A stretch of DNA of 64,000 nt from a virus (taxonomy: Duplodnaviria; Heunggongvirae; Uroviricota; Caudoviricetes), in IMG/VR virus record IMGVR_UViG_3300027974_000025. One strand, 5' to 3'. The notes beneath the pieces were generated by a model. The model ran no database searches and was not told the DNA's origin. It saw only the letters and a program-made list of their open reading frames with translations. The position numbers were made by a program, and so were the translations under genes. Below, in pieces: positions 18,978 to 48,722 of the stretch (positions within the stretch are counted from its first letter, which is position 1; each line of letters opens with the position of its first letter).

Positions 18978-19232
18978 TTAATCTTTAATACGTAAACCAA
19001 ACTGTAGGTCAAACCATTGAAAGTTTGCTTCAGCTCTTGCTTTGTTTATTTTAAATACCTTTTTCATCAATGGTATAGCATAAGCTTTGAACTGATCATG
19101 TTGTTCTTGTGTCATAGTCCATTTGCTATACCATTCTCTTGTCATATATGCTTCTTGTGTAGACTTACCAATCATTCCTAATTGATAGTCTACCAAGTGC
19201 TCACCAATATTCTCTCTATTTATCTTTGCCAT
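18978..19232 (-). CDS. hypothetical protein
   Basis: 84-aa ORF immediately downstream of the DNA polymerase gene. Confidence 0.35.
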   Translation of the reverse strand: MAKINRENIGEHLVDYQLGMIGKSTQEAYMTREWYSKWTMTQEQHDQFKAYAIPLMKKVFKINKARAEANFQWFDLQFGLRIKD

Positions 19233-21184
19233 TAGAACAAACTAATTTGATTAGGGTTAACAATGATTTTACGTTTCTTACCCTCTAGTTGTATCTTGTG
19301 TATTATGCGTTCAGCACGCTCAATATAATATGCATGATTGATATTATCTAATGGATGGTCTGGTTTTAGATTGTTGCATACATGCATCACCCAATCACCT
19401 GCTTCCACTTGTGATATATCAACAGCTGTGCTATCTGAATTGTGATTCTTCACCTTCAGTAGCTTCTCTCCTGTATTGGATACATAATATCTAATCAGCT
19501 TATTGTAGACTGTCTTTGTCTCTTTGCTATGACCTTCATAATGAAAGTCTTTACTAGCTTTTTGCCTGAGACAATAGTCATATATATTTGTATGATTGCG
19601 AATGGTGGTAGCCACAGGCACATCATTAACAAAAAACTGCTCCAATGCAATAGGTACAATCCTGGCAGACTTATTTTTGTGTAGTTCAAAGTCTGTAAGG
19701 AAGTCACCCTTCTTTTTGATTTCTCCATTAGTTTTAATTGCTAGATAGTCATTTACTGTAGAGAATATAATCTTAGCATAGTCTGTACGCTCTAGCTCAT
19801 AGCTAGTTAGATCCATCCACCACTTATTAATCTCATGCATCTTATCTATTAGTGATTTCTTAATCCTAATAGTTACACCATCTGTATTTGCAGATATAAC
19901 ATGTATATCAGCTAGTTCATATGCTTCGATGAGCATAAGAAGACTCAGTTCGCCTGTGATAGTGGTAAACATTGTTAGCTGTCTGTCATATATCCAGTTT
20001 TGCATGTCACTAGACTTACCATACACAGAGTTAACTGCAAGTTTAAGAGCACCAACAATACCTGCTATTTTCTTGTCTTTCTTGGCCATTGGTTTGAGTT
20101 CCAACCTTTTATCAAACATTGCTTTGTACCCAAGTAAGAATTCCTTACCCAAGTGACCAGGATATCTACCATTGTTAATGATAATAGCTGGATAATAGCT
20201 AGACACATCCCAATCAATAATTTCATAATCCTCATCAGACTCAAAAATCTTTGGTTTGTTCTCTGTATGAAGGCCACCCTTTGCAAACGTGTACGTATTT
20301 TCATAAAATTGTAATGATTCTTTGAATTCATCCTTCATTGTCAATACCTCTTTGCTAACCTTCTTTAAGAAATCTTTTAGCTTTGGTGTTTGGAATGTAA
20401 TGTAATCAGCTATACAATGTCTCACCTTCACTTCAGTTCTAAACTTACCTTTCTTTGGTAAATCAGAGTATTGTATGTTCTTCTCTTGACAATAGAACTT
20501 CTTAATCATCTCATCACCAATCTTGCTATCAGAATAGTTTAAGCATGGTATACCAAACTCTTCTTCAATGTCTTGTCTCAGCTCTATTTGATTGTTACCC
20601 TTGTACAATGGATGGTCTGTATCACCTGTTGTCACCTTGTAGAACTCATAGGTAGCCATAACATCATTCTTACAATAGTCTTTAGTTAGTTGAATATCAT
20701 CATCAGTCATGTTTGTTTTAGTATGGTGTACTGGCATCTCTTCAATGTTCTCCAGATCCATCTCAAACTCTAACCTTTTTAGTGAGACCATTCTATTCTT
20801 GTTGTCATAGTGATTGATTCTAAACAAATCAATCTGCTTTAGTGTAAGCCATTCTTCTCTGTACTCAGGGAATACATCATAGTTAGCATCATGTATGATA
20901 TCAGCAGCCTTTTGTGCTATCTTAGCAGCTATTTCAAAAGCAGCAAGCTCATGCCAATCATCATAGTTACGCAAGATCCACTCAATCACTTGAGAGTCAA
21001 AGCGTAAGTTATTATAACCAACCCAATAGTATTCAGGGTGTTGTTCAATAAACCTCATATACCCATCTAGTTGGTTCTTATCCTTACTCACTTCAAACTC
21101 TGTATAAGTTTTGCTCTCAGGATTATATATGCCAATGAGGAATAGTTCCTGCATTGTCTCAATATCATAGATGAGTATGTTCAT
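19232..21184 (-). CDS. family B DNA polymerase with a phi29-like motif architecture
   Basis: Exo I sits at the extreme N-terminus (LIYDIET). Exo II is YNNLRFDSQV and Exo III is YCKNDVMATYEF. Pol motif A is DVSSYYPAIII and motif B is KLAVNSVYGKSS (phi29 has KLMLNSLYGKF). The motif C region is ISANTDGV. 650 aa. Confidence 0.75.
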   Translation of the reverse strand: MNILIYDIETMQELFLIGIYNPESKTYTEFEVSKDKNQLDGYMRFIEQHPEYYWVGYNNLRFDSQVIEWILRNYDDWHELAAFEIAAKIAQKAADIIHDANYDVFPEYREEWLTLKQIDLFRINHYDNKNRMVSLKRLEFEMDLENIEEMPVHHTKTNMTDDDIQLTKDYCKNDVMATYEFYKVTTGDTDHPLYKGNNQIELRQDIEEEFGIPCLNYSDSKIGDEMIKKFYCQEKNIQYSDLPKKGKFRTEVKVRHCIADYITFQTPKLKDFLKKVSKEVLTMKDEFKESLQFYENTYTFAKGGLHTENKPKIFESDEDYEIIDWDVSSYYPAIIINNGRYPGHLGKEFLLGYKAMFDKRLELKPMAKKDKKIAGIVGALKLAVNSVYGKSSDMQNWIYDRQLTMFTTITGELSLLMLIEAYELADIHVISANTDGVTIRIKKSLIDKMHEINKWWMDLTSYELERTDYAKIIFSTVNDYLAIKTNGEIKKKGDFLTDFELHKNKSARIVPIALEQFFVNDVPVATTIRNHTNIYDYCLRQKASKDFHYEGHSKETKTVYNKLIRYYVSNTGEKLLKVKNHNSDSTAVDISQVEAGDWVMHVCNNLKPDHPLDNINHAYYIERAERIIHKIQLEGKKRKIIVNPNQISLF

Positions 21185-24005: not shown

Positions 24006-24234
24006 AATATCTATTTAATGCTATATATATTGTATTGTATAGCGTGAATTAATGATGTGTTAATATGTGGGAATAAGTGGTAATTAAGTACACAGCTCTT
24101 CTCACATTCACACAGAATATATTGAGAATCAATGTGTTAGTCAGTGTTATTCCCACCCAAACGTGTACATTACACCCACCCTTATATATAATAAGAGAGC
24201 AACGTCCTTTATTAGAACGTTACTCTCTATTAGT

Positions 24235-24618
24235 TTAGAATGCTACTGACAACAAGCTGTTGATTGCAGATTCTGTTAAGCCTGCACTGCTTGCTTGTGC
24301 TTTGATTTCCTGTTGGATTTCAATGTCAAGCAATGTGCTGTCAGCGTGAGCTTGCTTAATCTCTTCACGAGACTTGAATGCACTCAAAGCTGTAAGTCTA
24401 TCAGCTGTGCCAATAGTCTCGCCCTTCTCATTCAATTGGTTGATTTGCTTCATCTGACCAATTGCGTAGAATGGGAATGTTACGTCAGCGTTGCTCTTCC
24501 AACTTAAGGCTTCCATCTGTCTGCCAAAAATGTGGACTCTCTCGCCCAAAGCTGTGTAACCACTGAAGTTGCCATTTGCAGTAAAACTGCCATTGTTGAT
24601 AACGTAATTTTTTGTCAT
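24235..24618 (-). CDS. hypothetical protein, first gene of the leftward early arm
   Basis: 127-aa ORF beginning right at the divergent switch region. Confidence 0.45.
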   Translation of the reverse strand: MTKNYVINNGSFTANGNFSGYTALGERVHIFGRQMEALSWKSNADVTFPFYAIGQMKQINQLNEKGETIGTADRLTALSAFKSREEIKQAHADSTLLDIEIQQEIKAQASSAGLTESAINSLLSVAF

Positions 24619-24770
24619 CTGTTTGTTTTTTAATTTGTTAATTAATTAATTAGGGGGGATGTGTCGTTCCCCCAATTTGTATGGGGGGTTGTGATATGGA
24701 GAAGGCTACACTCCCATGGACACAAAGGGTGTGGGGGGCTGGGAAAATTTTGGGCTATAAGCAGGGGAAT

Positions 24771-24784
24771 GTTCCACGTGGAAC
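24771..24784. promoter_or_regulatory. perfect 14-bp palindrome GTTCCACGTGGAAC (candidate operator) in the divergent switch region
   Basis: Read directly from the sequence. The flanks extend it to about an 18-bp imperfect palindrome. It lies between the oppositely transcribed gene arms. Confidence 0.45.
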
Positions 24785-24936
24785 GTTTGTTACCTTTTTA
24801 TATAAATATGTAACAAGTTTGGTCAAGGGATGGCTTTACAAAAATAAATTTGGTGGGTATAAAGATTTACCATTATCTTTGGGGGGGATTTAGGGGGGGC
24901 CCTATCTAATACCTCTCTATTAATAAAAGCTTAGAC

Positions 24937-25185
24937 ATGGAAATGATTTTAACATTGGTTGGTTGTATTGTTGGTCTCTTGAGTGTAATTGTTTGTATAT
25001 GGGGATTCACCCATTTTGATGAATGGGAAATAGGGATAGAGTTTCTACCTAAAGACTACAACAACTTTGAACTAGGTGTCACTAATAGAAACTATGAGTT
25101 GACAGATGGAGGATTGGAACAAGAGCTTAGAATAGGTGTGTTGTTATTCACCTTTTTAATCATCTTCAGGAGATTTGATGCATAA
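24937..25185 (+). CDS. small membrane protein
   Basis: 82 aa with a TM-like N-terminus (ILTLVGCIVGLLSVIVCIWGF) and a TM-like C-terminus. Confidence 0.3.
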   Translation: MEMILTLVGCIVGLLSVIVCIWGFTHFDEWEIGIEFLPKDYNNFELGVTNRNYELTDGGLEQELRIGVLLFTFLIIFRRFDA

Positions 25186-25263
25186 TATAGCATTAAGTTT
25201 TACAATAACTAAATTAGTTATTTGTAGATCGTCCAGATATACATATCTTTGTATTAACTAATT

Positions 25264-25614
25264 ATGGAAGCAAAACCAATTGTACAACGACTAAAAACTT
25301 CAATAGAAGATGTCATTCCTATGGCTGAGAAGTATTACAAGATATTGTCAGCTGTGAATGAATTGAAGCTTACAAAGAGGGAAATACAATTGATAGCCTT
25401 TGCTGCTATAAAAGGGAACATCTCTTATGCTAACATACGTAAGGAGTTTTGTGAATTGTACAATAGTACGTCCCCAGCGATAAACAACATTATTTCCAAA
25501 TTAAAGAAGATGGGGATATTTGTGAAGGATGGTACAAAGGTGAAGGTGAACCCCATCATTCTGCTCAACTTCGAAAAGGATATAGTGCTACAAATTACAT
25601 TAACACATGGATAA
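25264..25614 (+). CDS. hypothetical protein, possibly a DNA-binding regulator
   Basis: 116-aa ORF, the first gene of the rightward arm. Confidence 0.4.
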   Translation: MEAKPIVQRLKTSIEDVIPMAEKYYKILSAVNELKLTKREIQLIAFAAIKGNISYANIRKEFCELYNSTSPAINNIISKLKKMGIFVKDGTKVKVNPIILLNFEKDIVLQITLTHG

Positions 25615-25993
25615 GCCTATAAGTATGTCTGTCAAGGACTACCTAGTTAGGACCCTTGCTGTGAAGATGATGATCTCTGAAAAGACGATTGAGACAGTGG
25701 TAAATCACCAGTTTCAATCTGCCAACGAAGCGATGGACACAAATAACAGTATTGAAATATCTGGGTTTGGGAAGTTTTACTTTAATGAGAAGAAAGCTAA
25801 GAAACGTCTAGAAGACTTGACTAGGAAGAAAAACCTAATGCTTGAGTTCCTAGCCAGTGCTGAAACCTCTGAACAAAAGAAACGTTCCTCTCAGGTGACA
25901 CTAGAAAAAACAGAAGCTCTGATCAATCTTTTAAAAAGTAAAATTACATATGAAGATCAACTTCTCTCAGATTTACGAGGGCTGGAAGAATAA
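25607..25993 (+). CDS. HU/IHF-like DNA-binding protein
   Basis: SVKDYLVRTLAVKMMISEKTIETVV...SIEISGFGKFYFNEKKAKKR follows the HU pattern (...LVGFGTFxVxxRxAR). Confidence 0.5.
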   Translation: MDKPISMSVKDYLVRTLAVKMMISEKTIETVVNHQFQSANEAMDTNNSIEISGFGKFYFNEKKAKKRLEDLTRKKNLMLEFLASAETSEQKKRSSQVTLEKTEALINLLKSKITYEDQLLSDLRGLEE

Positions 25994-26802: not shown

Positions 26803-27121
26803 GAAAACTACATACATAAATACAGAGCTTGAATGGGCTGAAGCACAACTTCTTTCCTGGAAAGCTTATGTAAACGCTAACCCACTGCATGAACTAAAGG
26901 ATAGAATTGAGTGGAAACCCACAGCTAAAGGAGGCATGTTACCTATGGTCATAGCATCTATTGAAGCACAGGGTAAGTTTGTACAAGAGACTATGAAGAA
27001 CTACCTAGCCCTAGTGGAAGTGGTAGATAAGTTAAGAAACATGGAAGAAGCTAAGGTGGAAGTGAGAGGAAAAGGTGAGTTATCAGGAGCAGCTGCTGAG
27101 TTCTTAGCAAATAGAAAATGA
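26789..27121 (+). CDS. hypothetical protein, a positional candidate for the terminase small subunit
   Basis: 110 aa. It lies directly upstream of the terminase large subunit and overlaps it by 4 nt. Confidence 0.3.
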   Translation: MATIKKTTYINTELEWAEAQLLSWKAYVNANPLHELKDRIEWKPTAKGGMLPMVIASIEAQGKFVQETMKNYLALVEVVDKLRNMEEAKVEVRGKGELSGAAAEFLANRK

Positions 27122-29160
27122 TAGAACTACAAAACATAGATTACAAAGACTGGTTTATAAATCAGAAACGTATTCCTGACAAAGACTCTCAGGAGTGTAA
27201 GCCATTCTTTGACTTTCACAGAGAGCTATGTTTGAATGGAGCTATGATGGGGGGTGTTTACATCAACCCATTTTTGTATTGGCACTTAAACATCTGGCAT
27301 ACAGAAGTTGACATAATAGATGAAAGAGGAAGGATTGCACAGAAATATGCCAATCCTTTTTTAAGAGATAATGAATGGCTTGTGACAAATGAAATTGACA
27401 GAGCTCAACAAGAAAAGAGGGGCTTAGTCATTCTAGGTATTAGACGTTTTGCCAAGTCAGTTTTAGAAGCATCCTATATTGCATGGGGTGCAACCTTTGA
27501 TGAAAACAGTCAGAATATCATAGCAGGCTTAAATGCCCCAGATATTAAACTGATTACTGATAAGATTGACAAAGGATTGAATTTCATTCCTGAGTATTGG
27601 AGATGGCAGAGAATTGAGGATAACTGGAAGAACCAAGTGACTCTAGGTATAAAGACCAAGTCTGGTGAACGTATCCCATTCTCTTCCATTCTAATACGTA
27701 ACCTTGATGAAGGTAACAATGAAGAGGCTATTGCAGGTACAAAACCACGTAAATTAATTATAGATGAGATTGGTAAAGGGAATTTTCTTAGAGGTTTACA
27801 GGCTGCTATTCCAGGTTTCACAACACCCTATGGCTGGGGATGTAGCCCAATTCTTACTGGTACAGGTGGTGATATGAAGAAATTCATGGATGCAAAGAGC
27901 TTAATGTTTGATGTAGACAATTTTAACTTCCTTACATATAATAACAGTAAAGATGACAAACGTATACATGGTCTTTTTATTTCTCATAAGTATAGAATGG
28001 AAGCCAAAGAAGATTCTACACTAGGAGCATATTTGAATGAGCCATCTAAATCAGACTTACACAATGTAAAAATGCTTGTAAGTAATGAAGAGAAGGCAAC
28101 GCAGATTACTAATGATAACTTAGAGAGACTTAAGAAGGCTGGAGATAGAATAGCTTATTTAAAAGAAAAGATGTACTATCCTCAAGAAGTGGATGATATC
28201 TTCTTGAATGAGGACACAAATATATTTGATATTGATGGTGCTAAGAGACAGAAGATCAGGTTGTTACAACAAGAAAGAACAGGAACTCCTATTGTATTGT
28301 TTCATGATGGAGAGAAGATAGCTCATGAGTTTACAGACAAAATGCCCATCTCTAACTTCCCTCTAAAGAACTCAGACCTGAAAGAAGCACCTGTTGTTAT
28401 ATATGAATTCCCTGTAGATAATCCTCCTTATGGATTGTATGTAGCAGGGGTCGATCCATATAGACAAGGTAAGTCTGCATATTCAAGTTCACTTGGATCT
28501 GTATACATATATAAAAGGATGCATGAAATTAGTGGTGAGAAGTATCAAGATATGTTCGTAGCTTCGTATTGTGCAAGACCTGATAAGAAAGAAACTTGGG
28601 AAGAACAAGCTAGATTTCTTATTAAGTATTACAATGCTAGAACATTGTGTGAGAATGATGATATATCTTTTATTGAATATATGAAAGCTAAAGGGGATGC
28701 TCACTATCTAGAGAGACAACCTGATTGGCTTAAAGAGATTGTTCCAAACACCACTGTAAAAAGAGATTATGGAATTCATCGTTCAAGTCAGAAGATAATT
28801 GACTATCTTCACACCTGTTTAAAGAAGTATATGGAAGCTCCTATATTTGTAGAGAAGAATGATGCTGGTGAGGTGATTAGAGAAGTGCTAGGTGTAAGTA
28901 AGATATTTGATCCTGTATTGCTTGAAGAGATTATTCAATACAATGATCAAGGTAACTTTGATAGAATCATTGCTGCAGAGTTAGCTATTGCCCAAGCAAT
29001 GAAGATGGACCCAATCATGGGTAAGATAGGTGGTACATCAGATGAGAGAGTAGCTTCTATGTTCAATAAGAAAAGAGGTAATATACTTTTCACTGAGTCT
29101 AGGAACAACATGTTTGGACAATCAAGAAATAAATATAAACGAAATAAATTGTTTTCATAA
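27118..29160 (+). CDS. terL: terminase large subunit
   Basis: Deviant Walker A VILGIRRFAKS, Walker B KLIIDEIG, and a coupling motif TGTGGD. The C-terminal RNase H-like nuclease begins at YVAGVDPYRQGKS. 680 aa. Confidence 0.7.
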   Translation: MIELQNIDYKDWFINQKRIPDKDSQECKPFFDFHRELCLNGAMMGGVYINPFLYWHLNIWHTEVDIIDERGRIAQKYANPFLRDNEWLVTNEIDRAQQEKRGLVILGIRRFAKSVLEASYIAWGATFDENSQNIIAGLNAPDIKLITDKIDKGLNFIPEYWRWQRIEDNWKNQVTLGIKTKSGERIPFSSILIRNLDEGNNEEAIAGTKPRKLIIDEIGKGNFLRGLQAAIPGFTTPYGWGCSPILTGTGGDMKKFMDAKSLMFDVDNFNFLTYNNSKDDKRIHGLFISHKYRMEAKEDSTLGAYLNEPSKSDLHNVKMLVSNEEKATQITNDNLERLKKAGDRIAYLKEKMYYPQEVDDIFLNEDTNIFDIDGAKRQKIRLLQQERTGTPIVLFHDGEKIAHEFTDKMPISNFPLKNSDLKEAPVVIYEFPVDNPPYGLYVAGVDPYRQGKSAYSSSLGSVYIYKRMHEISGEKYQDMFVASYCARPDKKETWEEQARFLIKYYNARTLCENDDISFIEYMKAKGDAHYLERQPDWLKEIVPNTTVKRDYGIHRSSQKIIDYLHTCLKKYMEAPIFVEKNDAGEVIREVLGVSKIFDPVLLEEIIQYNDQGNFDRIIAAELAIAQAMKMDPIMGKIGGTSDERVASMFNKKRGNILFTESRNNMFGQSRNKYKRNKLFS

Positions 29161-31742
29161 TGGCAATTATAAGATACACAAAAGACGCAACAATCAGGTA
29201 TGCCTATCTAAATATCTTCCCTGACCAGTTTAAGACTGAAAAGGAAAAGATGGATGAGAGTTGGATTAAAAATACCATGGATTACTTTGCTAACAAAGCA
29301 TACGCTGAATATGTAAAGAACAGAGATACATTTGTTAAAAACTATGACCTTGTAAAAGGTATATTAAGAAGAGAAGATTTCTACCAAGAACCAGAAGTAA
29401 GAAGCTTTACAGATGTGCTCACAGCAGATCTAGCTCTTCCTGCCTATGTAAAACATTATTCTATAATGACCACTCCTATTAATGAGTTAGTAGGAGAAAT
29501 CAGCAAAAGACCTGATGCATTTCGTGTCAAAGCATTTGATGATGACAGTAAAGCTGAAGAGCTTGAGTTTAAAACTCAACTATTACAAGACTATGTTGTT
29601 TCTCAAGCACAAAGAAAGATATTAGAGAAAGCAGCATTTGATGGTGTAGAAATTTCAGATGATGAGTTACAGGAGAAAACATTAGAACAAGTAAAAGATG
29701 AACTTGATAGCTACACCTCTGTAGCAGAGAAATGGGCAAATCATATACTAACTGCTGAGAAAGCTGAGTTTGTATTAAAGGAAAAATCTGAAGATGCCTT
29801 TAGAGATTTATTGATTTCTTCTAGAGAATTCTTCCACATCTATGAAGATAACTCAAAAACTGGGTTTAATGTTGAGGTGGCTAACCCTAAGAACACTTGG
29901 TTCTTAACCACTCCAGATAGAAAGTATATATCAGATACAACTGGTAGAAGTCAAGGGGCTTATGCTGCTGGTACTGTACAAGTTATGGAATTGTCTGAGA
30001 TCATTGAATCAATTCCAGATTTAACCAAAGAAGAGATTGACCACTTACGTAGTTCATTACAAGATTACGGATTGATCAATGTACGTGAATCTAATCTTGG
30101 TAATCCTAATGCTATTCCAGGTAATGACTCTATTCAATATGATACATTTGATCCATTAGTCTTACAGACTAGAATGATTATTGAGTCTGAAATGAAAGAG
30201 AATAATGATGGTCTTCAGGATTTCTTAGGACTTACATCTAATGTAAGCTCTTTTGGTTACAAATATGTTGTGGTAAGAGGTTATTGGATTTCTAAGAAGA
30301 AGATAGGTAAGGTGATATATACAGATGAGATGGGTAATGAACAATCTATGTTAGTAGATGAAGACTACAAATCTAAAACAATTCCTACAGAACTTTCATT
30401 AGAATGGGGATGGATTAACCAATGGTACCAAGGTACTAAGATTGGTCCAGACATCTATCATATCAAACCTTATAACTTATTACCTTACTGTCCAATCATT
30501 GGTCAAGTATTTGAGGTGAAGAATACAGAGGCTAAGAGCCTTGTAGATATGATGAAGCCTTTCCAAGTTTTATACAATGTGTGTATGAACCAGTTATATA
30601 AGTTACTTGAGAAGGAAGTGGGTAAGGTGCAGTTAATGTCTATCAGACACATTCCTATTCCTAAAGATGGAGATGCACAAGATGCTCTTGATATTTGGGA
30701 AATGGAAGCTCGTAACAGAGGTGTGGTATTTGTAGATGACAGCCCAGAGAATTTAAAGAGTCCAAGCTCATTTAATCAATACACCAGCTTAGACCTTACA
30801 CGTACGCAGGAGATCCAAGCAAGATATACTCTAGCACAACAACTTAAGAATGAGTGTTGGGAATTAATAGGTATGTCAAGACAAAGACTAGGATCTGTAC
30901 AAGCTAGTGAATCAGCTACAGGTACTAACGCAGCTATTACACAATCTTATGCTCAGACAGAACCTTTATTTGTAGCTCATGAATATATACTAGGTCAGTT
31001 ATATCAATCAATCATTGATGCAGCTTTATATGTTGAGAGCAAGAAGCCACAGTCTACTATATCTTATATTACATCTGAGGGAGAATCTGCATTTGTATCT
31101 GTGAATGGTACAGACTTACGCTTTAGAGACTTAAAAGTATTCTTGACTAACAGACCTGAAGATAGACAAATGTTTAATGAGATTAGAGGATTGTCTCAAG
31201 CTGTTATACAAAATGGTGGAAGCTTACATGATGTAATTGAACTATATAGCACCAATTCAATGAGACAAATGAAGCATGTGTTTAAGAAATTGAAGGATAG
31301 ACAAGAAGGTCTGCAGAATGCTCAGCTACAACAAAAACAACAAGAGATTGAACAAACACAACAAATTGCTCAAGCTCAAATTGAATCAGCTCAAGCACAA
31401 GCAGAAGAAAAACTAGCTAATGAAAACTACCAAGCTGAGCTTGATAGAATTAATAAGAAAGAGATTGCTCTTATTGCAGCTGAGTCTAAGAGTGGTCCTT
31501 TATCAGATTTAGATACTAGTGGCACTCCTGATGTTTTAGAGATTGATAAGTTAGCTTTGGCTCAGTCAAAGGCTGAAAGAGATTATCAAGCTAAGATGAT
31601 GGATGTACAAAGTAAAAATCAACTTGCTGCTCAGAAACTAGAGATAGAAAGAGAGAAGTTAAAAATAGCTAGAGAGAACCAGGCTAATGATTTAGCTGTT
31701 GCTAAAGAGAATGCTAAAGGCAGAGCTAAGAAAACCAAATAA
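29160..31742 (+). CDS. portal protein (putative)
   Basis: 860 aa, immediately after terL (ATAATGG overlap). It has a coiled-coil Gln/Ala-rich C-terminus. Confidence 0.5.
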   Translation: MAIIRYTKDATIRYAYLNIFPDQFKTEKEKMDESWIKNTMDYFANKAYAEYVKNRDTFVKNYDLVKGILRREDFYQEPEVRSFTDVLTADLALPAYVKHYSIMTTPINELVGEISKRPDAFRVKAFDDDSKAEELEFKTQLLQDYVVSQAQRKILEKAAFDGVEISDDELQEKTLEQVKDELDSYTSVAEKWANHILTAEKAEFVLKEKSEDAFRDLLISSREFFHIYEDNSKTGFNVEVANPKNTWFLTTPDRKYISDTTGRSQGAYAAGTVQVMELSEIIESIPDLTKEEIDHLRSSLQDYGLINVRESNLGNPNAIPGNDSIQYDTFDPLVLQTRMIIESEMKENNDGLQDFLGLTSNVSSFGYKYVVVRGYWISKKKIGKVIYTDEMGNEQSMLVDEDYKSKTIPTELSLEWGWINQWYQGTKIGPDIYHIKPYNLLPYCPIIGQVFEVKNTEAKSLVDMMKPFQVLYNVCMNQLYKLLEKEVGKVQLMSIRHIPIPKDGDAQDALDIWEMEARNRGVVFVDDSPENLKSPSSFNQYTSLDLTRTQEIQARYTLAQQLKNECWELIGMSRQRLGSVQASESATGTNAAITQSYAQTEPLFVAHEYILGQLYQSIIDAALYVESKKPQSTISYITSEGESAFVSVNGTDLRFRDLKVFLTNRPEDRQMFNEIRGLSQAVIQNGGSLHDVIELYSTNSMRQMKHVFKKLKDRQEGLQNAQLQQKQQEIEQTQQIAQAQIESAQAQAEEKLANENYQAELDRINKKEIALIAAESKSGPLSDLDTSGTPDVLEIDKLALAQSKAERDYQAKMMDVQSKNQLAAQKLEIEREKLKIARENQANDLAVAKENAKGRAKKTK

Positions 31743-35318: not shown

Positions 35319-35355
35319 GAAGACTTTCCCCCCACCTCCAAGTGGGGGAGTCTTC
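35319..35355 (+). promoter_or_regulatory. strong intergenic hairpin after the capsid gene (no T-run), a possible attenuator or RNA processing site
   Basis: gaagact-tt-ccccccac...gtggggg-agtcttc. It is preceded by a second small palindrome acaccagtggtgt (35290-35302). Confidence 0.4.
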
Positions 35356-40506: not shown

Positions 40507-43500
40507 ATGTCTTGTTTACCAGGAATGAACTGTGGAGGATATCAGTCAAATGATTGCTGTCCAGAAGTTAATTCAAATTGCGTAGATTATAGCGGACCCA
40601 ATTTACCTTGCTCAGGTGTACAAACACATGACTGCCTAACAACTGTTATTGAAAAGATAGATGACAAGTTATGTAGAGTGGGTAATGGTACGTCTGGTAC
40701 TTCTGGTTCTTCAGGTTCAACTTATGGAACAGCAGGAACTACAGGTACATCTGGTCGTGATGGTACAAGTGGTACTAGTGGAACTAGTGGCTCTACAGGT
40801 ACAACAGGAACAAGTGGTAGATCTGGTACCTCAGGAACTACAGGCACATCAGGTGGATCTGGTACTTCAGGAACTTCTGCAACAAGTGGATCTAGTGGTA
40901 GAAATGGATCAAGTGGTACGTCTGGTACAAATGGATCATCTGGTACTGCTGGAACTAGTGGAAGAGCTGGTACTACTGGTACAAGTGGTTCATCTGGTAC
41001 AACAGGAACAAGTGGATCAAGCGGTACAACTGGAACCTCTGGTACAACAGGTACAGACGGTTCTTCAGGAACATCAGGTTCTAGTGCTTCTTCAGGCACA
41101 TCAGGAACAACTGGTACAGATGGTTCATCTGGTACAACAGGTTCTTCTGGTATTTCAGGTGACAGATATTTTACTACATCTGCAGATTCACATACATTAG
41201 GTACTGCAGGAACTCTCACTGTAGGAACAAACTTAGCCTACACTCCTGGTCAATCAATTATTATTGCTCATAGTGCCACTGAATATCAAGTGAGCACATT
41301 ACTAACATATAATGCTGGTACAGGTGCCATGTCTTTTAGTGCACCTTCTACAACAGTAGGTTCTGGTACATTTACTGCGTGGAATGTAAATTTACAGGGA
41401 GCTGCAGGTGGTGATGGATCTAGTGGTACATCTGGCTCTGCTGGTACATCAGCATCTTCAGGAACAAGTGGTTCTACAGGTACAAGTGGAACTAGTGGTT
41501 CTACTGGTACTAGTGGTACATCTGGTACTTCTGGATCTAGTGGAACAACAGGAACCTCAGGAACAAATGGAACATCTGGTTCTACAGGAACTTCTGGCAC
41601 AAGTGGGACATCTGGTTCTTCAGGCACAACTGGTACAAGTGGAACATCTGGCACTTCTGGCTCAACTGGTACAACTGGTACATCTGGTACAGCAGGAACA
41701 TCTGGAACTAGTGGTTCTACAGGAACAACTGGTACAAGTGGTACTAATGGTACTTCAGGAACATCAGGCTCAACTGGAACCACTGGTACAAGTGGTACAT
41801 CAGGGTCAACTGGTACAACTGGAACAAGTGGTACTAATGGAACAAGTGGTACTAGTGGTTCTAGTGGTTCTAGTGGAACATCTGGCACATCTGGAACAAG
41901 TGGTAGTACAGGAACTACAGGTACCTCAGGTACAACTGGTACAAGTGGAACTAGCGGTTCTACAGGTACAAGTGGTACTTCAGGTACAAGTGGTTCTACA
42001 GGTACAAGTGGTTCTACAGGAACATCAGGAACAAGTGGTACAACTGGAACTAGTGGTACAAATGGTACTAGTGGAAGTAGTGGTACAGCAGGTACAAATG
42101 GTACTAGTGGATCAACAGGAACTTCTGGAACATCTGGTTCTACAGGAACTTCTGCTAGTTCAGGACAATCTGGTACATCAGGTAGTTCTGGTACATCTGG
42201 TACAGCAGGTACATCAGGATCTGTAGGTACATCAGGTACAACTGGAACTAGTGGAACCTCAGGTACAAGTGGTTCAACAGGATCTTCAGGCACATCAGCT
42301 TCTTCAGGTACATCAGCTTCTAGTGGTTCTAGTGGATCTTCTGGAACTAGTGGGACATCAGGTACTAGTGGTACAACTGGTTCAAGTGGAACAACAGGTA
42401 CTTCTGGTACATCAGGTACAAGTGGTTCAACAGGTACCTCAGGTACAACTGGTACAAGTGGTACATCTGGAATAAATGGTACTGCTGGAACTTCTGGTAC
42501 TAATGGATCTAGTGGTACATCAGGTATCTCTGGTAATATATATGCAACAACATCTTCTACTAACCTAACAATAGGTACAGGTACTAAAAACCTTACTGTT
42601 GCAACAGGTTTATCTTATACGGTTGGACAAAGTGCTATTATAGCAAATAGTGTAGGTAATGACATGACTGGCCCTGTTATTTCATATAACAGCGGAACAG
42701 GTGCCCTATCTGTAAATGTATTAACTACTAATGGTAGTGGTACATATTCTACATGGAGTGTTAACTTGGCTGGTGCCTCTGGTGGTACTGGTTCTTCTGG
42801 AACTTCTGGATCTTCTGGTTCTACAGGAACTAGTGGTACTTCTGGATCAACAGGAACCTCTGGTACAAGTGGAACTAGTGGTACATCAGGGTCAACTGGT
42901 ACAACTGGAACTAGTGGTACTTCAGGTACTAGTGGTACATCAGGATCAACTGGAACATCAGGAACTTCTGGTACTAGTGGTTCTACTGGTACATCTGGAC
43001 TTACTGGAACTGCAGGTACAAGTGCTTCAGCAGGAACTAGTGGATCAAATGGATCTTCTGGTTCTTCTGGTACAACTGGAACCTCAGGGACAAGTGCTTC
43101 TTCTGGATCAAGTGGTACAGCAGGAACTTCTGCTTCTTCTGGTACTTCTGGATCTAGTGGTTCATCTGGTTCATCTGGAACAACTGGTACTACAGGAACT
43201 AGTGGAATTAATGGAACAAGAGGAACAAGTGGAACTACAGGTACCTCAGGTACAACTGGTACAAGTGGTTCAACAGGAACAACAGGTACCAGTGGAACTA
43301 GTGGTATAAATGGAACTAATGGTATTAATGGAACAAGTGGAACCTCTGGTACAAATGGTACTAGTGGTACAGCTGGTACTAATGGAAGTAGTGGAACAAA
43401 TGGTACTAGTGGAATAAATGGAACAAGTGGTACAACTGGAACTAGTGGTACAACAGGTACCAGTGGAACAAGTGGATCTAGTGGTACAGTTGGTACAAGT

Positions 43501-46488
43501 GGTACAGTTGGTACAAGTGGAACTAATGGTTCTAACGGAACATCTGGAACAACAGGTACTAGTGGTACAAGTGGTACAAATGGTTCTAATGGAACATCTG
43601 GTACTAGTGGTACAAATGGTACAAGCGGAACAAATGGTTCAAGTGGTACATCTGGAGTTAATGGTACATCAGGAACAGCAGGTTCTAGTGGTACATCTGG
43701 AACAAGTGGTTTTAATGGAACATCTGGTACAACAGGTACCTCTGGAACAACTGGAACAACTGGTACTAGTGGAACAAGTGGAACAAATGGTTCTAATGGT
43801 ACAACAGGTACTAGTGGTACCGTTGGTACAAGTGGAACATCTGGCACTAGTGGATTTGGTACATCAGGTACAAGTGCCTCTTCTGGTACAGCAGGAGTAA
43901 GTGGAGATAGATATCAAACAACTTCCACTAGTGCATTCACTCTTGGTAACAATGGTACTATAACAGTGGGAACAGGACTTGCTTATACAGCAGCTCAGGT
44001 TATTCGTATTGTATATGATGCCACTCGCTATCAAGATTCTTTAGTTATATCATATAATAGTGCAACTGGTTCATTATCTTTTGATACTCCTACCCTTACA
44101 GTTGGATCAGGAACATTTAGTTCTTGGACAGTTAACTTAGCTGGAGCTAGTGGTGGTAATGGTTCTAGTGGTGTAAGTGGTACAGCAGGTACTTCTGGTG
44201 CTAGAGGTACAAGTGGTACAGCTGGTACATCTGGTACATCTGGAACTAGTGGTTCATCAGGAACAACAGGTACAGCTGGTACTAGTGGATTTGGAACAAG
44301 TGGGACATCAGGAACATCTGGTACAAATGGATCAAATGGATCTAGTGGAACTGCTGGTACGTCTGGTACTAGTGGAACTAATGGTTCTAGTGGCACATCT
44401 GGTACTTCTGGATCTTCTGGTACAAGTGGTACAGCAGGAACTAGTGGATCTAATGGATCTAGTGGTACTTCAGCTTCTTCAGGTACAGCAGGTACAAGTG
44501 GTACTTCTGCTTCTAGTGGTACATCAGGTACAAATGGATCAAGTGGAACTGCAGGTATAAGTGGAATATCTGGAACTAGTGGTACATCTGCATCTTCAGG
44601 TACATCTGGAGCAAATGGTCCAACTGGTGCAACTGGTACCAATGGTACATCAGGACTAACTGGAGCAAGTGGTTCAAGTGGAACATCTGGATTAACTGGT
44701 GCTAGTGGTTCTTCTGGTACATCAGGTGCAAATGGTGGCACTGGATCAAGTGGAACATCAGGTGCAACTGGAGCATCAGGTACTAGTGGTAGTTCAGGTT
44801 CTAGTGGTACTTCAGGAGAGAGTCCATCAATAAGTGGATTATTACCTTTGGCTGGAGGCACAATGACAGGTCAAATTGTTCTCAGTAAATCTACATCAGT
44901 GTCTGATTATTCTAATGGTATAAGATTCCCTAATGATCCATTTGGTGGATCTGGAGATACAAGTGGTTTTAGAATATATGCTTCATCAGGCGAAGCACAA
45001 GTGGTAGAAATATATGTTAAGAATGATGCTGATGATATAATTAATTTCTCAGCACCTTCTAATAATGGTGTAACAATAAATAATAGTGTTATTTGGAATA
45101 CAGCTAATTTAGCAAATGTAAGTCAACTATCTAATGATGCTGGATATATTACAGCTTCTGGAAGTATTACAGGTTCTGCTAGAAGTTTAGATAGTAGTAA
45201 CTATATTAATAGAACAGGATCTTCAGGTAATTACAATATAGACTTCCAAAACACACCAGCTGGTACTTACAGATATCAAGGAGATGATGCATCTGCAACT
45301 AATAATCCAGGTGGTACTTGGTGGATGGTAGAAAACATGCGTCACTCAAATGGTAGTAACTATTGGGGTACACAAATTGCATGGGGCTGGGAAGATAATG
45401 CTAATAGACTAGCTACAAGAAATATTTCTGGAGGAACCTTTAGTTCATGGGTTTATTATCTAAATAGTTCTAATTTCACTAGCTATGCTCCATCTTTAAC
45501 AGGAGCAGGAGCTTCTGGTAGTTGGGGTATTAGTGTTACAGGTAGTGCTGGTTCATTATCTAACACCAACATATCTCAGTTCACAAATGATTCAGGTTAT
45601 ATAACAATAGCAGCATTGTCCTCATACCTTCCTTTAACAGGAGGTACAATGTCTGGTGCAATATTATTTGCTAATAATATAGGTACTGCTTTACAAGGTA
45701 CTATGGCTGATAATGATTTTTGGAGAATATTAGGAGGCAATACAGGAAGCAACAATGGTTATTTAGAAATAGCTACAGCAGATGATGGAACAGAGCCTAT
45801 CTACTTCAGACAATACACAGGAGTGTTTGGTTCTTTAGTTAGAACAGCTACAATATTAGATGGTTCAGGTAATACATTATTACCAGGTAATGTTGGAATT
45901 GGAACAAATCCAAACTACAAGCTCGATGTTAATGGTTCAACTTTCTTAGCAGGTTCTACTAAATTTATAGCAGGAGGTACTAACTATAATGAAAATATTA
46001 GATGTACAGCTTCGTCAAATGATTATTCCTCCATTATATTAGGAGCTGTAGCTGGTGATATAGGTACAGGAGTTGGACAATGGACTTTGGTAAGATGGCC
46101 ATCAGCAAATAGTTATAAATTTACTATTAGATATAATAATACTGATAGTCTTACTATAGATACATCTAATAACTTAACAATGTTAGGTAGTGTAACTGCT
46201 AGTTCTTTCTTTGAAGGTTCAGATATAAGATTTAAAAACGTATTAGAAACAAATCCAGATATCAAAGTATTAGGAATAGATGTAATTAAATTTACAAGAA
46301 CAGATGATGATACCAATGCAGTTAGGTATGGTTATTCAGCTCAACAAGTGCAAGAGGTAATACCAGAGGCAGTTGCAGGAGATGATAAATTATCTGTAAA
46401 CTATATGGATGTACATACATTAAAGATTGCAGCATTAGAAAAACGTATTGCAGAATTAGAAGCTAAATTGAATAAATATGGCATATAG
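40507..46488 (+). CDS. giant collagen-like tail fibre (1993 aa) with a C-terminal peptidase-S74 intramolecular chaperone domain
   Basis: After an N-terminal Cys-rich docking domain come about 1100 residues of uninterrupted Gly-X-Y triplets with X,Y almost only Thr/Ser/Ala/Asn (GTSGTSGSTGTTGTSG...). Three paralogous domains of about 85 aa are interspersed in the triplet region. The fibre-repeat motifs LPLAGGTMTGQIVL and LPLTGGTMSGAILF follow. The C-terminal GSDIRFKNVLE...YGYSAQQVQEVIPEAVAGDDKLSVNYMDVHTLKIAALEKRIAELEAKL matches the S74 chaperone signature (SDxRxK...). Confidence 0.8.
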   Translation: MSCLPGMNCGGYQSNDCCPEVNSNCVDYSGPNLPCSGVQTHDCLTTVIEKIDDKLCRVGNGTSGTSGSSGSTYGTAGTTGTSGRDGTSGTSGTSGSTGTTGTSGRSGTSGTTGTSGGSGTSGTSATSGSSGRNGSSGTSGTNGSSGTAGTSGRAGTTGTSGSSGTTGTSGSSGTTGTSGTTGTDGSSGTSGSSASSGTSGTTGTDGSSGTTGSSGISGDRYFTTSADSHTLGTAGTLTVGTNLAYTPGQSIIIAHSATEYQVSTLLTYNAGTGAMSFSAPSTTVGSGTFTAWNVNLQGAAGGDGSSGTSGSAGTSASSGTSGSTGTSGTSGSTGTSGTSGTSGSSGTTGTSGTNGTSGSTGTSGTSGTSGSSGTTGTSGTSGTSGSTGTTGTSGTAGTSGTSGSTGTTGTSGTNGTSGTSGSTGTTGTSGTSGSTGTTGTSGTNGTSGTSGSSGSSGTSGTSGTSGSTGTTGTSGTTGTSGTSGSTGTSGTSGTSGSTGTSGSTGTSGTSGTTGTSGTNGTSGSSGTAGTNGTSGSTGTSGTSGSTGTSASSGQSGTSGSSGTSGTAGTSGSVGTSGTTGTSGTSGTSGSTGSSGTSASSGTSASSGSSGSSGTSGTSGTSGTTGSSGTTGTSGTSGTSGSTGTSGTTGTSGTSGINGTAGTSGTNGSSGTSGISGNIYATTSSTNLTIGTGTKNLTVATGLSYTVGQSAIIANSVGNDMTGPVISYNSGTGALSVNVLTTNGSGTYSTWSVNLAGASGGTGSSGTSGSSGSTGTSGTSGSTGTSGTSGTSGTSGSTGTTGTSGTSGTSGTSGSTGTSGTSGTSGSTGTSGLTGTAGTSASAGTSGSNGSSGSSGTTGTSGTSASSGSSGTAGTSASSGTSGSSGSSGSSGTTGTTGTSGINGTRGTSGTTGTSGTTGTSGSTGTTGTSGTSGINGTNGINGTSGTSGTNGTSGTAGTNGSSGTNGTSGINGTSGTTGTSGTTGTSGTSGSSGTVGTSGTVGTSGTNGSNGTSGTTGTSGTSGTNGSNGTSGTSGTNGTSGTNGSSGTSGVNGTSGTAGSSGTSGTSGFNGTSGTTGTSGTTGTTGTSGTSGTNGSNGTTGTSGTVGTSGTSGTSGFGTSGTSASSGTAGVSGDRYQTTSTSAFTLGNNGTITVGTGLAYTAAQVIRIVYDATRYQDSLVISYNSATGSLSFDTPTLTVGSGTFSSWTVNLAGASGGNGSSGVSGTAGTSGARGTSGTAGTSGTSGTSGSSGTTGTAGTSGFGTSGTSGTSGTNGSNGSSGTAGTSGTSGTNGSSGTSGTSGSSGTSGTAGTSGSNGSSGTSASSGTAGTSGTSASSGTSGTNGSSGTAGISGISGTSGTSASSGTSGANGPTGATGTNGTSGLTGASGSSGTSGLTGASGSSGTSGANGGTGSSGTSGATGASGTSGSSGSSGTSGESPSISGLLPLAGGTMTGQIVLSKSTSVSDYSNGIRFPNDPFGGSGDTSGFRIYASSGEAQVVEIYVKNDADDIINFSAPSNNGVTINNSVIWNTANLANVSQLSNDAGYITASGSITGSARSLDSSNYINRTGSSGNYNIDFQNTPAGTYRYQGDDASATNNPGGTWWMVENMRHSNGSNYWGTQIAWGWEDNANRLATRNISGGTFSSWVYYLNSSNFTSYAPSLTGAGASGSWGISVTGSAGSLSNTNISQFTNDSGYITIAALSSYLPLTGGTMSGAILFANNIGTALQGTMADNDFWRILGGNTGSNNGYLEIATADDGTEPIYFRQYTGVFGSLVRTATILDGSGNTLLPGNVGIGTNPNYKLDVNGSTFLAGSTKFIAGGTNYNENIRCTASSNDYSSIILGAVAGDIGTGVGQWTLVRWPSANSYKFTIRYNNTDSLTIDTSNNLTMLGSVTASSFFEGSDIRFKNVLETNPDIKVLGIDVIKFTRTDDDTNAVRYGYSAQQVQEVIPEAVAGDDKLSVNYMDVHTLKIAALEKRIAELEAKLNKYGI
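40684..44822 (+). repeat. low-complexity triplet-periodic DNA (GGW-ACW-WSW) encoding the collagen-like region, in four blocks
   Basis: Blocks at about 40684-41157, 41416-42531, 42791-43892 and 44161-44822. They are separated by the three domains of about 255 nt. The region generates many spurious antisense ORFs. Confidence 0.8.
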
Positions 46489-48028: not shown

Positions 48029-48649
48029 ATGACAGTATTAATAACATTAACTTTAGCAGGGACAGATGTTGGTCCCTTCAATCTTTTTTCAAATGTGGAT
48101 GGGTATACTACACCATTAGCAACAGGAATATCTAGAGCTGCATTAATAGCAGGATACAGCCTTACAGGTGTGCCTGATGATGCTGCAGTTATAAGAGCTC
48201 AGTCTACAGGAACTTGTACAAACTATCTTGATATGTATCTAAGTGGTGGTACAACCACTACATCTACTAGCACTTCTTCTACAACAAGCTCTACAACTAC
48301 ACCACCTCCAGCATGTCTCACTGGTGATACAAGTGCTGTGGCATCATGTGCAGGTGGGGAATCAGCTCTATTCACAGTGACTGTAGGAAATACAGCAATC
48401 ATCACTCCTGGTGGATATTACTACTCTGGATCTGGTACAAGAACTTATACAGCATACATTATGAATGCTGCTAATGATACAGTGTTGTACACATTCAACT
48501 ACACTCAGACAGGTTCTTCTCCTGGTACTTGGACATCTGATTTGCCTCTTAACACACTATCTGCAGGTAGCTATCGCCTAAGAACAGACACTGTGAACTG
48601 TTTCACTAGCTCTGGTTCATTTAGTTTAAATGCTAGCTGTGGTTCATAA
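48029..48649 (+). CDS. fibre-associated protein, member 1 of a paralogous N-terminal-domain family
   Basis: Its N-terminus MTVLITLTLAGTDVGPFNLFSNVDGYTTPLATGISRAALIAGY is shared with ORFs 57128 and 57573. It has a Ser/Thr/Pro linker (TTTSTSTSSTTSSTTTPPP). Confidence 0.5.
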   Translation: MTVLITLTLAGTDVGPFNLFSNVDGYTTPLATGISRAALIAGYSLTGVPDDAAVIRAQSTGTCTNYLDMYLSGGTTTTSTSTSSTTSSTTTPPPACLTGDTSAVASCAGGESALFTVTVGNTAIITPGGYYYSGSGTRTYTAYIMNAANDTVLYTFNYTQTGSSPGTWTSDLPLNTLSAGSYRLRTDTVNCFTSSGSFSLNASCGS

Positions 48650-48688: not shown

Positions 48689-48722
48689 CCCCTAGGGTTT
48701 CTACCCTGGGGGTTTTTTGTTT
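48689..48722 (+). terminator. rho-independent terminator
   Basis: cccctaggg(48689-48697)-tttcta-ccctggggg(48704-48712), a 9-bp stem with one G-U pair, followed by TTTTTTGTTT. Confidence 0.6.

Follow-up and report, generated by a model that had tools for sequence, protein, structure and literature searches.

Where all genes on one side of a short spacer run leftward and all genes on the other side run rightward, the question is what the spacer itself does. This question is raised by positions 24619-24936 of a 64-kb window (the whole stretch of DNA that was analysed, 64,000 nucleotides of the IMG/VR record IMGVR_UViG_3300027974_000025), which belongs to a crAss-like phage from freshwater. An earlier inspection of the letters, hereafter the sequence-only reading, had seen in this spacer a regulatory hub such as an early/late switch operator or an origin, or else a genome terminus or packaging signal. 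Judged by comparison with its relatives, the spacer is a conserved noncoding control region with multiple parts, placed at the divergence of the early and the middle/late genes, and thus a locus of a kind already known, the phage divergent promoter/control region. For its mechanism we prefer, with a rough probability of 55%, an early-to-middle switch that operates on a phased protein-binding scaffold and in which a G-rich start region makes the rightward promoter P1 conditional.

The divergence of the genes from the spacer was borne out, the sizeable open reading frames (ORFs) left of the spacer (24618 to 954) being all leftward and those right of it (24937 to 61555) all rightward. The replication genes (a DNA polymerase, a DnaB-like helicase, and another helicase) are on the left, and the packaging, structural, and HU-like genes are on the right, an arrangement that supports a switch. 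In Cellulophaga phage phi14:2, too, a single spacer separates the replication module from the structural and expression modules, which run the other way. In that phage, the replicative module is early, transcribed in one direction, rifampicin-resistant, and made by the injected virion polymerase gp66, and the middle and late genes are read in the opposite direction from host-polymerase promoters, P110 and P108 at the junction among them (Drobysheva et al., bioRxiv 10.1101/2020.03.07.982082).

Related loci were gathered using the two flanking proteins as probes. The 127-residue product of the first leftward gene led to 7 IMG/VR loci and the product of the gene starting at 25264 (the 25264 protein) to 29 loci, while an exact pattern scan for the G-rich motif added ~25 further crAss-like contigs, with one copy each. 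More than 30 related contigs share the layout of the spacer, and the family of the 25264 protein comprises 1870 clusters at 90% identity and 297 representatives at 50% identity. The first leftward gene varies among related phages, and the element upstream of the same gene is kept. Together, the split of the modules, the promoters of phi14:2 type described below, and the conservation of the parts in these contigs support the proposal of a regulatory hub or early/late switch. The pattern scan also matched unrelated contigs (L038, L039, L055, L063, and L065), in which CCTCCC stands before CTTTGGGGAGGTTGGGTGGGG to give a CCTCCC-CTTT-GGGGAGG hairpin; these contigs carry another repeated element, whose G-rich tail is similar.

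Two rightward promoters of Bacteroidota type, P1 in the spacer and P2 just before the 25264 gene, are predicted by sequence match. The combination of TTTG and TAnnTTTG is reportedly the consensus of the Bacteroidota primary sigma factor, the work being attributed to Bayley et al. in 2000 and Chen et al. in 2007. Both P1 and P2 show TAnnTTTG with TTTG 19-21 nt upstream. A strict scan for TTTG-N18-23-TAnnTTTG returned 12 matches in 64 kb, two of them overlapping at 24818-24881 and one before the 25264 gene; P1 and P2 are the only strict matches in the spacer, and P1 alone of the 12 has G-runs after it. A scan for Escherichia coli-type sigma-70 promoters showed no excess, with 7 found and 9.6 expected in shuffles. 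Host-type middle promoters have been determined in phi14:2 by primer extension and in vitro transcription for g070, g075, g108, and g110 (bioRxiv 10.1101/2020.03.07.982082). The sequences upstream of these four genes read (C/T)TTG-N19-20-TAnnTTTG, and an A-rich tract, (C/T)TTG, 19-21 nt, and TAnnTTTG make up these promoters as they do P1 and P2. However, the phi14:2 promoters have no G-tract after the -7 box and are almost leaderless, as is P2, whereas the P1 leader is 55 nt long. Phage phi14:2 also differs from the window in having neither the phased array of 4-6 G-runs nor the GTTCCA-NN-TGGAAC palindrome (both below), with nil nucleotide similarity and a terminase identity of <35%.

The last G of the P1 -7 box also opens the G7 pair, which makes the G-tract the predicted discriminator and initial transcribed region. 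The whole P1 block is nearly identical in ~34 distinct related sequences, where AAAAATAAATTTGG-N21-TAnCTTTG is followed by a G-rich tract with a mean G4Hunter score of 1.95. This tract is GGGG-N-GG-NN-GGGTGGG in most relatives, with T, C, or A at position 5, variable positions 8-9, and only GG as the second tract; the other version is G7-ATTTA-G7 (and G7-AAA-G7). Two unrelated versions that keep the G-tracts and leave the intervening bases free point to selection on a property of the G-tract.

G-runs are in fact concentrated in the spacer. Although the GC content of the window is 35.7% rather than the ~33% ascribed to it by the sequence-only reading, the spacer features listed there are all present, with coordinates within 1 nt. 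These are G6 runs at 24653-24658 and 24683-24688 (given as 24654 and 24684), C5 at 24669-24673, G7 runs at 24881-24887 and 24893-24899, the GGGTGTGGGGGGCTGGG cluster, and the TAAT repeat that abuts the first G-run. The 64 kb hold 15 G/C runs of >=5 bases, and as many as 6 of them are located within 24653-24899 (247 bp), against a Poisson expectation of 0.06 (P ~5e-11 by our own arithmetic). Since the lengths of the G-runs are identical in independent assemblies, they are neither sequencing artefacts nor phase variation. As for the proposed formation of G-quadruplex (G4) or i-motif structures, sequence-level G4 potential was found for G7-ATTTA-G7 only, and i-motif potential is weak in the window. 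G4 prediction singled out 24881-24899 as the sole (G3+N1-7)x4 motif on either strand of the 64 kb (G3-G-G3-ATTTA-G3-G-G3, G4Hunter 2.2), and the only two G4Hunter windows scoring at least 1.5, 24717-24757 and 24872-24907, are both in the spacer. The potential to form a G4 is real, as far as base composition and order go, and conserved.

The G-runs are also regularly spaced. In 28 related junctions, the start-to-start distance of successive runs of at least four Gs has its mode at 29-32 nt (53 of 116 intervals), with runs clustering at ~-72, -102, and -131 relative to the P1 G-tract. In the window, they start at 24653, 24683 (+30), 24733 (+50), and 24764 (+31). A spacing of ~30-31 bp is roughly three helical turns and places the runs in register with the P1 G-tract. 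Neither this phasing nor the position of the G7 pair directly behind the -7 box had been noted in the sequence-only reading. All 96 distinct units with a run of at least five Gs (96/96) carry them on the + strand, and C-runs of that length occur almost solely as the hairpin partner. Each G-run is followed by W-TGT and then by an inverted repeat that differs from unit to unit. The block that follows the G-run of unit 2 reads GGGGGGTTG-TGAT-ATGGAGAAGGCTA-CACTCCCAT in the window and GGAGGGGTTG-N4-TGGAAGTA-CCCTCCCCTCCCATG in most relatives. The An-Tn tract after unit 3 may be an easily melted or bent segment.

Several other explanations were considered. A quadruplex-duplex hybrid, that is, a G4 with hairpin loops, is not favoured, as the self-complementarity between runs is modest (summed minimum free energy z = -3.3) and many stretches between runs have no hairpin. 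Watson-Crick folding of the spacer is not exceptional on either strand (z -0.7 to -1.3), and a conserved helix in unit 2 (GGAGGGG / CCCCTCC) was rejected, its register differing between sub-clades and its G/C low complexity making it ambiguous. A 70-residue ORF on the + strand (24681-24893; L077 918-1130), a gene in the Joint Genome Institute (JGI) annotation, is very probably not coding because relatives show indels and cassette replacements across it.

The palindrome singled out by the sequence-only reading is perfect, 14 bp long, and unique, but it is not statistically unusual, since the window holds 7 perfect 14-bp palindromes and shuffles hold 7.5. Near-matches at 41-45 kb are collagen-like coding repeats. 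What distinguishes the palindrome is its conservation: the arms GTTCCA/TGGAAC (or GTTTCA/TGAAAC; TT[CT]CA/TG[GA]AA) recur in ~21 of ~35 distinct related junctions, typically flanked by G6 runs, while the two central bases vary (CG, TG, TA, or CA). Fixed half-sites around a free centre suggest a site for a dimeric DNA-binding protein. Both the palindrome and the G-tracts are thus conserved in relatives, where the lack of such conservation had been named as the outcome that would speak against a regulatory region. The G-run array contains several conserved inverted repeats, the palindrome among them, and those found after G-runs include TT(C/T)CAC(G/A)TG(G/A)AA, GTCAAGC-TATA-GCTTTAC, CCTTT-N-AAAGG, and GTAAAG-N-CTTTAC. 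Close relatives swap whole inverted-repeat cassettes at fixed positions. In two of them (L013/L014), for example, TGCATGAA-TTTTTCCAAAG-TTCATGCA replaces GTTACC-TTTTTATATAAATAT-GTAAC of the window at the same position and with a similar centre. Within the window, neither GCATAATATAGCA, GTCAAG..GCTTTAC, nor the palindrome has further copies.

The leftmost unit of the array differs from the others in that its G-run is followed by a C-run. In relatives, this candidate hairpin has G4-6, a loop of 2-11 nt, and C4-5, and it is located 32-41 nt upstream of the first leftward ATG. The stem has 5-6 G:C pairs; the loop of the window is 10 nt long, and many relatives have a 5-bp stem and a 3-nt loop (GGGGG-ATA-CCCCC). 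In the clade, a second G-run follows at ~30 nt (28-30 nt) and then the conserved block. A similar hairpin with a second G-run is found in Bacteroides phage crAss001 and, as G4-loop-C4 with the second run ~29 nt away, upstream of the first early gene of phi14:2 (Table 1). Comparable G/C hairpins are nearly absent elsewhere: 50 kb of phi14:2 hold a single further example, and the two additional ones of the window (7575 and 35328) are not located in spacers at the head of an operon. The element is kept at the start of the early operon in three distant lineages (the window clade, crAss001, and phi14:2). If it is a start site of the kind considered below, it would be a general feature of Crassvirales, because the freshwater clade shares the hairpin and the second G-run 28-30 nt away with both phages. 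Since the stem shows no covariation and is always a G-run followed by a C-run, what is conserved is a sequence able to form a hairpin, which is not proof of a hairpin. An intrinsic terminator was rejected for this element: the tails, AATTTGTATG on the + strand and TAATTAATT on the - strand, have no U-tract, and no gene ends upstream on either strand.

How might these parts work together? In the switch that we prefer, the phased units would be binding sites on one face of the duplex DNA for phage DNA-binding proteins, with the products of the adjacent winged-helix and HU-like genes as prime candidates. The bound proteins would assemble a nucleoprotein scaffold upstream of P1, and the G-rich discriminator and initial transcribed sequence would make open-complex formation or escape at P1 conditional. 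Scaffold and G-rich start would then determine when early leftward transcription gives way to transcription of the rightward module by the host polymerase, and the G/C hairpin would mark the start region of the early transcript.

The candidate binder of the inverted repeats is the 25264 protein, which is syntenic with the region in all relatives. It matches only winged-helix families, all below threshold (MarR, Crp-like, Rep_O, MCM_C, and Penicillinase_R), and its AlphaFold2 model has a predicted local distance difference test (pLDDT) score of 71.6, with 79-89 across most of the core (~residues 21-90), and a helix-helix-helix-helix-wing topology. The best Foldseek match in the PDB is the N-terminal domain of T4 MotA (1bja_A; E = 7.8e-3, root-mean-square deviation 2.1 A, 79 columns), and others are MarR-family repressors and the T4 sigma-appropriation complex 6k4y_M. 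From these matches we take the product to be a small winged-helix DNA-binding or regulatory protein, as modelled, and nothing narrower. There is a likeness here to T4 MotA/AsiA, in that an early-to-middle hand-over takes place on the host polymerase and the first conserved rightward product has MotA as its best, weak match; however, this match does not reach significance, generic winged helices of MarR type give it too, and no equivalent of the MotA box or AsiA was identified. The array also resembles iteron origins and operator arrays (lambda ori, plasmid iterons, and the phi29 p6/p4 switch), where helically phased units lie beside an A/T tract and genes for small DNA-binding proteins and where divergent early and late promoters are controlled. 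In contrast to these systems, the units of the array share only G5-6 and W-TGT, the remainder being a different inverted repeat each, their spacing is ~30-31 bp rather than ~22-24 bp, and no initiator was identified.

Several observations weigh against the preferred switch. 1) The 96 distinct units have no shared consensus beyond the G-run and the loose W-TGT, other positions being near background, so a single protein binding them all is not evident and several dimeric binders would be needed. 2) The strict placement of G on one strand only is explained as well or better by a single-strand structure (G4 or R-loop). 3) The TTTG-N18-23-TAnnTTTG scan found no host-type promoter facing left in the spacer, which leaves the start of early transcription unexplained. 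4) No fold match of the 25264 protein reaches E <= 1e-3. 5) The junction of Cellulophaga phage phi17:2 has none of the spacer features. 6) The labels "early" and "middle" are borrowed by analogy from phi14:2 and crAss001.

Table 1. Parts of the spacer, neighbouring genes, and comparable hairpins (positions are those of the window unless another phage is named)
Feature	Position	Strand	Details
TAATTAATTAATTA, AT-only leader between hairpin and leftward ATG	24639-24652		Semi-conserved in close sub-clade
Unit 1, G6-ATGTGTCGTT-C5 hairpin	24653-24673		34 nt upstream of leftward ATG
Unit 2, G6 and conserved block TTG-N4-TGGAGAAGGCTA-CACTCCCAT	24683-24719	+	G6 30 nt after unit 1
Unit 3, GGGTGTGGGGGGCTGGG	24727-24743	+	G6 at 24733-24738
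AAAATTTT tract	24744-24751		8 bp; longer An-Tn tract at the same place in relatives
Unit 4, GGGG, then AAT, then palindrome GTTCCACGTGGAAC	24764-24784		GGGG 31 nt after unit 3; palindrome at 24771-24784
Inverted repeat TTGTTACC-TTTTTATATAAATAT-GTAACAA	24787-24816		AT-rich centre
GTCAAGGGATGGCTTTAC, imperfect inverted repeat	24822-24839		Abuts -33 region of P1; 1-3 copies in relatives, usually right after a G-run
Predicted promoter P1 (Bacteroidota type)	24840-24881	+	A-rich AAAAATAAA; -33 TTTG 24849-24852; 21 nt; -7 TATCTTTG 24874-24881
G7-ATTTA-G7	24881-24899	+	From last base of P1 -7 box to ~+15
Predicted promoter P2	25180-25251	+	-33 TTTG 25221-25224; 19 nt; -7 TATCTTTG 25244-25251; 12 nt before ATG 25264
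First gene of leftward (early/replication) module	24235-24618	-	127 residues; no family match
Small protein, first ORF after P1	24937-25185	+	82 residues; hydrophobic ends
Winged-helix protein (25264 protein)	25264-25614	+	116 residues
HU/IHF-like DNA-binding protein	25607-25993	+	PF00216, E = 1.3e-9
Large terminase, crAss-type	27118-29160	+	phrog_6681
Portal	29160-31742	+
DNA polymerase	19232-21184	-
crAss001 hairpin GGGGG-tagga-CCCC	133-146 (crAss001)		45 nt to first early ATG (gp1); second G-run G5 at 161
phi14:2 hairpin GGGG-atact-CCCC	98031-98043 (phi14:2)		68 nt to g111 ATG; second G-run G5, 29 nt away

The other readings of the spacer and the preferred switch are not mutually exclusive, and our figures for them are rough estimates; we take them in order of decreasing probability. 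The first is a transcription-primed origin, in which a P1 transcript through G7-ATTTA-G7, with G on the non-template strand, would form an R-loop or hybrid G4 that opens the duplex and gives a primer. The phased units would be iterons and the An-Tn tract an unwinding element, and parallels would be the human mitochondrial light-strand promoter and conserved sequence block II (LSP-CSBII), ColE1 RNA II, and the T4/T7 origins. G-clusters near the 5' end of a transcript are said to favour R-loops, a finding attributed to Roy and Lieber and to Wanrooij et al. The sole canonical G4 motif of the 64 kb is located exactly at the start of a consensus promoter, its G-tracts persist where the bases between them, or even the version as a whole, have changed (G7ATTTAG7 to G4NGGNNG3TG3), the An-Tn tract is conserved, and the replication module is adjacent. 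The minimum of the cumulative GC skew (~24.45-24.6 kb) is at the left edge of the spacer, and the highest GC skew seen, 0.445, is in the 300-bp window 24600-24899. In prototypic crAssphage, a combination of Ori-Finder, skew, and coverage has placed a predicted origin at the strand switch (PMC10983915).

The skew switch, however, coincides with the gene-strand switch, so that the skew minimum is no independent evidence for an origin. The units have the helically phased spacing of iterons, but they are not several direct repeats of one sequence, sharing only the G-run and W-TGT. No initiator could be recognised, the matches to the winged-helix models Rep_O and MCM being sub-threshold, and crAss001 and phi14:2 have the same type of junction promoter with no G-tract. 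LSP-CSBII (G6AG8) and ColE1 RNA II do resemble the window in having a promoter closely before two long non-template G-runs, at a leading-strand skew switch. Their G-runs, though, are ~100-300 nt downstream of the promoter, whereas the G-tract of the window starts at the -7 box, and the polymerase would presumably be the multisubunit enzyme of the host. An origin is thus plausible but unproven, because of the confounded strand switches, and we consider it rather unlikely.

The second reading looks to the other end of the spacer. Here the hairpin and G-runs would extrude as non-B DNA in the injected supercoiled genome and be the entry site or promoter of the virion RNA polymerase, giving the template for the early leftward transcript. 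Folding of the G-rich strand into a hairpin or G4 in freshly injected supercoiled DNA may give an enzyme unable to use duplex DNA access to a single-stranded template. A precedent is phage N4, whose early promoters are hairpins with a 5-7-bp stem and a 3-nt loop, extruded from supercoiled DNA with the help of single-stranded DNA-binding protein. As in N4, there would be a virion-packaged polymerase that needs a single-stranded template and a short G:C hairpin just upstream of the early genes, and the 5-bp stem and 3-nt loop seen in many relatives, though not the 10-nt loop of the window, are the geometry of N4 promoters. The polymerase of phi14:2, gp66, does transcribe single-stranded or denatured DNA and not duplex, and no common early-promoter motif was found for it (bioRxiv 10.1101/2020.03.07.982082). 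An enzyme of this kind, for which an early-promoter motif is not known, would suit a spacer with no host-type promoter for the leftward genes and with a hairpin and a G-run 28-30 nt away, a combination that stands upstream of the first early gene in the clade, crAss001, and phi14:2, G/C hairpins of this type being almost absent elsewhere in these sequences.

Other points speak against this reading. There is one copy of the hairpin per genome rather than several (three in N4), the loop varies between 2 and 11 nt in relatives rather than being 3 nt, the stem has no compensatory variation, being always G then C, and the Watson-Crick folding energy of the region is unexceptional (z = -0.7 to -0.9). 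The polymerase of N4 is T7-like whereas that of crAss-type phages is a two-barrel, QDE-1-like enzyme. Primer extension gave the phi14:2 authors no common early motif, and phi17:2 lacks the hairpin element. A literature search found no later work on virion-polymerase promoters of crAss phages. On balance, we regard such an entry site as unlikely. We are similarly doubtful of the combined proposal that the hairpin and the strand-specific phased G-runs are a start site of the two-barrel virion polymerase, a primer-forming origin, or both.

The third reading moves from DNA to RNA. The G-tract would act in the P1 mRNA, as an RNA G4 or by pairing with CU-rich sequence further downstream, and in this way adjust stability, translation, or the read-through that reaches P2 and the winged-helix gene; in another version, slippage on the G-run at initiation would sense nucleotide pools, as in Bacillus subtilis pyrG. 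It would give a role to the long leader that sets P1 apart from P2 and the phi14:2 promoters. By eye, the last G-tract or adjacent purines of ~8-10 relatives are able to pair with a CU-rich stretch ~12 nt further on, changes on one side being matched on the other (AGGGA/TCCCT, AAGGA/TCCTT, AGGAG/CTCC-T); for the window, again by eye, AGGGGGG is able to pair with CCTCTCT via G-U pairs. However, RNAalifold found no consensus structure in 25 P1 leaders, and Rfam had no match at the gathering threshold over 64 kb, with only noise (E = 3-9) at E <= 10 over 24500-25350. Moreover, the first G7 may fall outside the P1 transcript, and the ORF after P1 is not conserved, several relatives having no 82-residue ORF and only a noncoding leader of 50-150 nt between P1 and P2. 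We consider action at the RNA level decidedly unlikely.

The last reading, also raised by the sequence-only reading, is a genome terminus or packaging site (pac, cos, or direct terminal repeat), with recognition by the terminase aided by the winged-helix and HU/IHF-like proteins in the manner of lambda cosB-Nu1-IHF. The terminase gene is 2.2 kb downstream. Four related contigs end <=50 nt from the P1 G-tract, three of them upstream (L059, 2 nt; L020, 36 nt; L012, 43 nt) and one downstream (L061, 49 nt), where ~0.2 such ends would be expected for ~30-kb contigs by our own arithmetic. Some ~8 end within ~420 nt (L012, L020/L066, L059, L061, L010, L032, L037, and L043), a contig end is found in the 2.7 kb upstream of the 25264 homologue at 14 of the 29 loci, and the records of crAss001 and Leptolyngbya phage Lbo-JY46 start 0.1-0.7 kb from the equivalent junction. 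Nevertheless, a real terminus is improbable and an assembly explanation favoured, because the breaks coincide with the two edges of the hyper-conserved P1 block, where assembly graphs are expected to break if related strains co-occur, and several contigs of 111-116 kb, as well as the 114.7-kb JGI metagenome contig with an identical copy of the 25264 protein, to which the window belongs, pass uninterrupted through the region; in addition, no small terminase was identified.

With regard to the early-to-middle switch that we prefer, three features of the spacer appear to be undescribed: the G4-prone start of a consensus promoter, the phased one-strand array of G-runs, and the junction hairpin shared across Crassvirales lineages. 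A literature search for crAss phages together with G-quadruplexes or conserved junction elements returned nothing relevant. Among the viruses of gut and aquatic Bacteroidota, crAss-like phages are some of the most abundant, and their origins of replication are so far predicted ones. The locus offers a compact and comparatively validated set of candidate cis-elements for the start of early transcription or of replication in these phages. Should the G-tracts act via a G4 or R-loop, they would be a rare example of a conserved G-quadruplex at a functional position in an AT-rich phage; otherwise, the analysis still maps the switch region with its promoters for a large uncultured clade of freshwater phages.

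Two further conserved elements are found downstream of P1. GCATAATATAGCATT (25180-25194), which contains GCAT twice 10 nt apart, is almost invariant ~40 nt upstream of the P2 -33 element in every relative and may be an activator site. A degenerate GCATAATATAGCATT is present even in L035/L036, and in the window the stop codon of the 82-residue ORF is inside it. Four relatives that have no 82-residue ORF (L030, L031, L037, and L056) carry, ~30-75 nt after the P1 G-tract, a conserved noncoding block (A/G)T(G/A)GTCAATTGGTGCTGTGAATGGTCAACGG with a direct repeat of ATGGTCAA. This block is preceded by a purine/pyrimidine hairpin with apparent compensatory changes.

As to the phage itself, the window had no nucleotide match among 50,697 deposited phages, ARAGORN found no tRNA in it, and its terminase is <=38% identical to that of any deposited phage, the nearest being Lbo-JY46, Cellulophaga phages phi17:2 and phi4:1, and gut crAss-like phages. 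Lbo-JY46 (PP438436.1; L073/L074) is the closest cultured relative. It is recorded as a cyanobacterial phage, yet it has many promoters of Bacteroidota type (TTTGG-N20-TATCTTTG), and its host assignment or promoter usage deserves a look; a literature search found no paper on it. A tRNA array is located between its P1-like promoter and the homologue of the 25264 protein, and its record ends ~0.7 kb from the equivalent junction.

Elsewhere in the window, a strong hairpin with a 15-bp stem (24194-24228, - strand) lies directly after the first leftward gene, in a noncoding gap of 229 bp (24006-24234), so that the first early gene may be transcribed as a unit by itself, ending in a terminator or attenuator of its own. 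Two further hairpins look like ordinary intrinsic terminators, C6...G5 at 35328-35348 after a gene ending at 35255 and CCCC...GGGGG-TTTTTT at 48690-48720 after a gene ending at 48649, and they explain part of the few G/C runs outside the spacer. Finally, a 1993-residue ORF (40507-46488) contains, notably at 41000-45000, many near-copies of GGTACAACTGGAAC / GGTACAAGTGGAAC (Gly-Thr-Thr/Ser-Gly-Thr) that look like collagen-like Gly-X-Y repeats and coincide with the sole GC-rich stretch of the window (42-45% vs ~35%).

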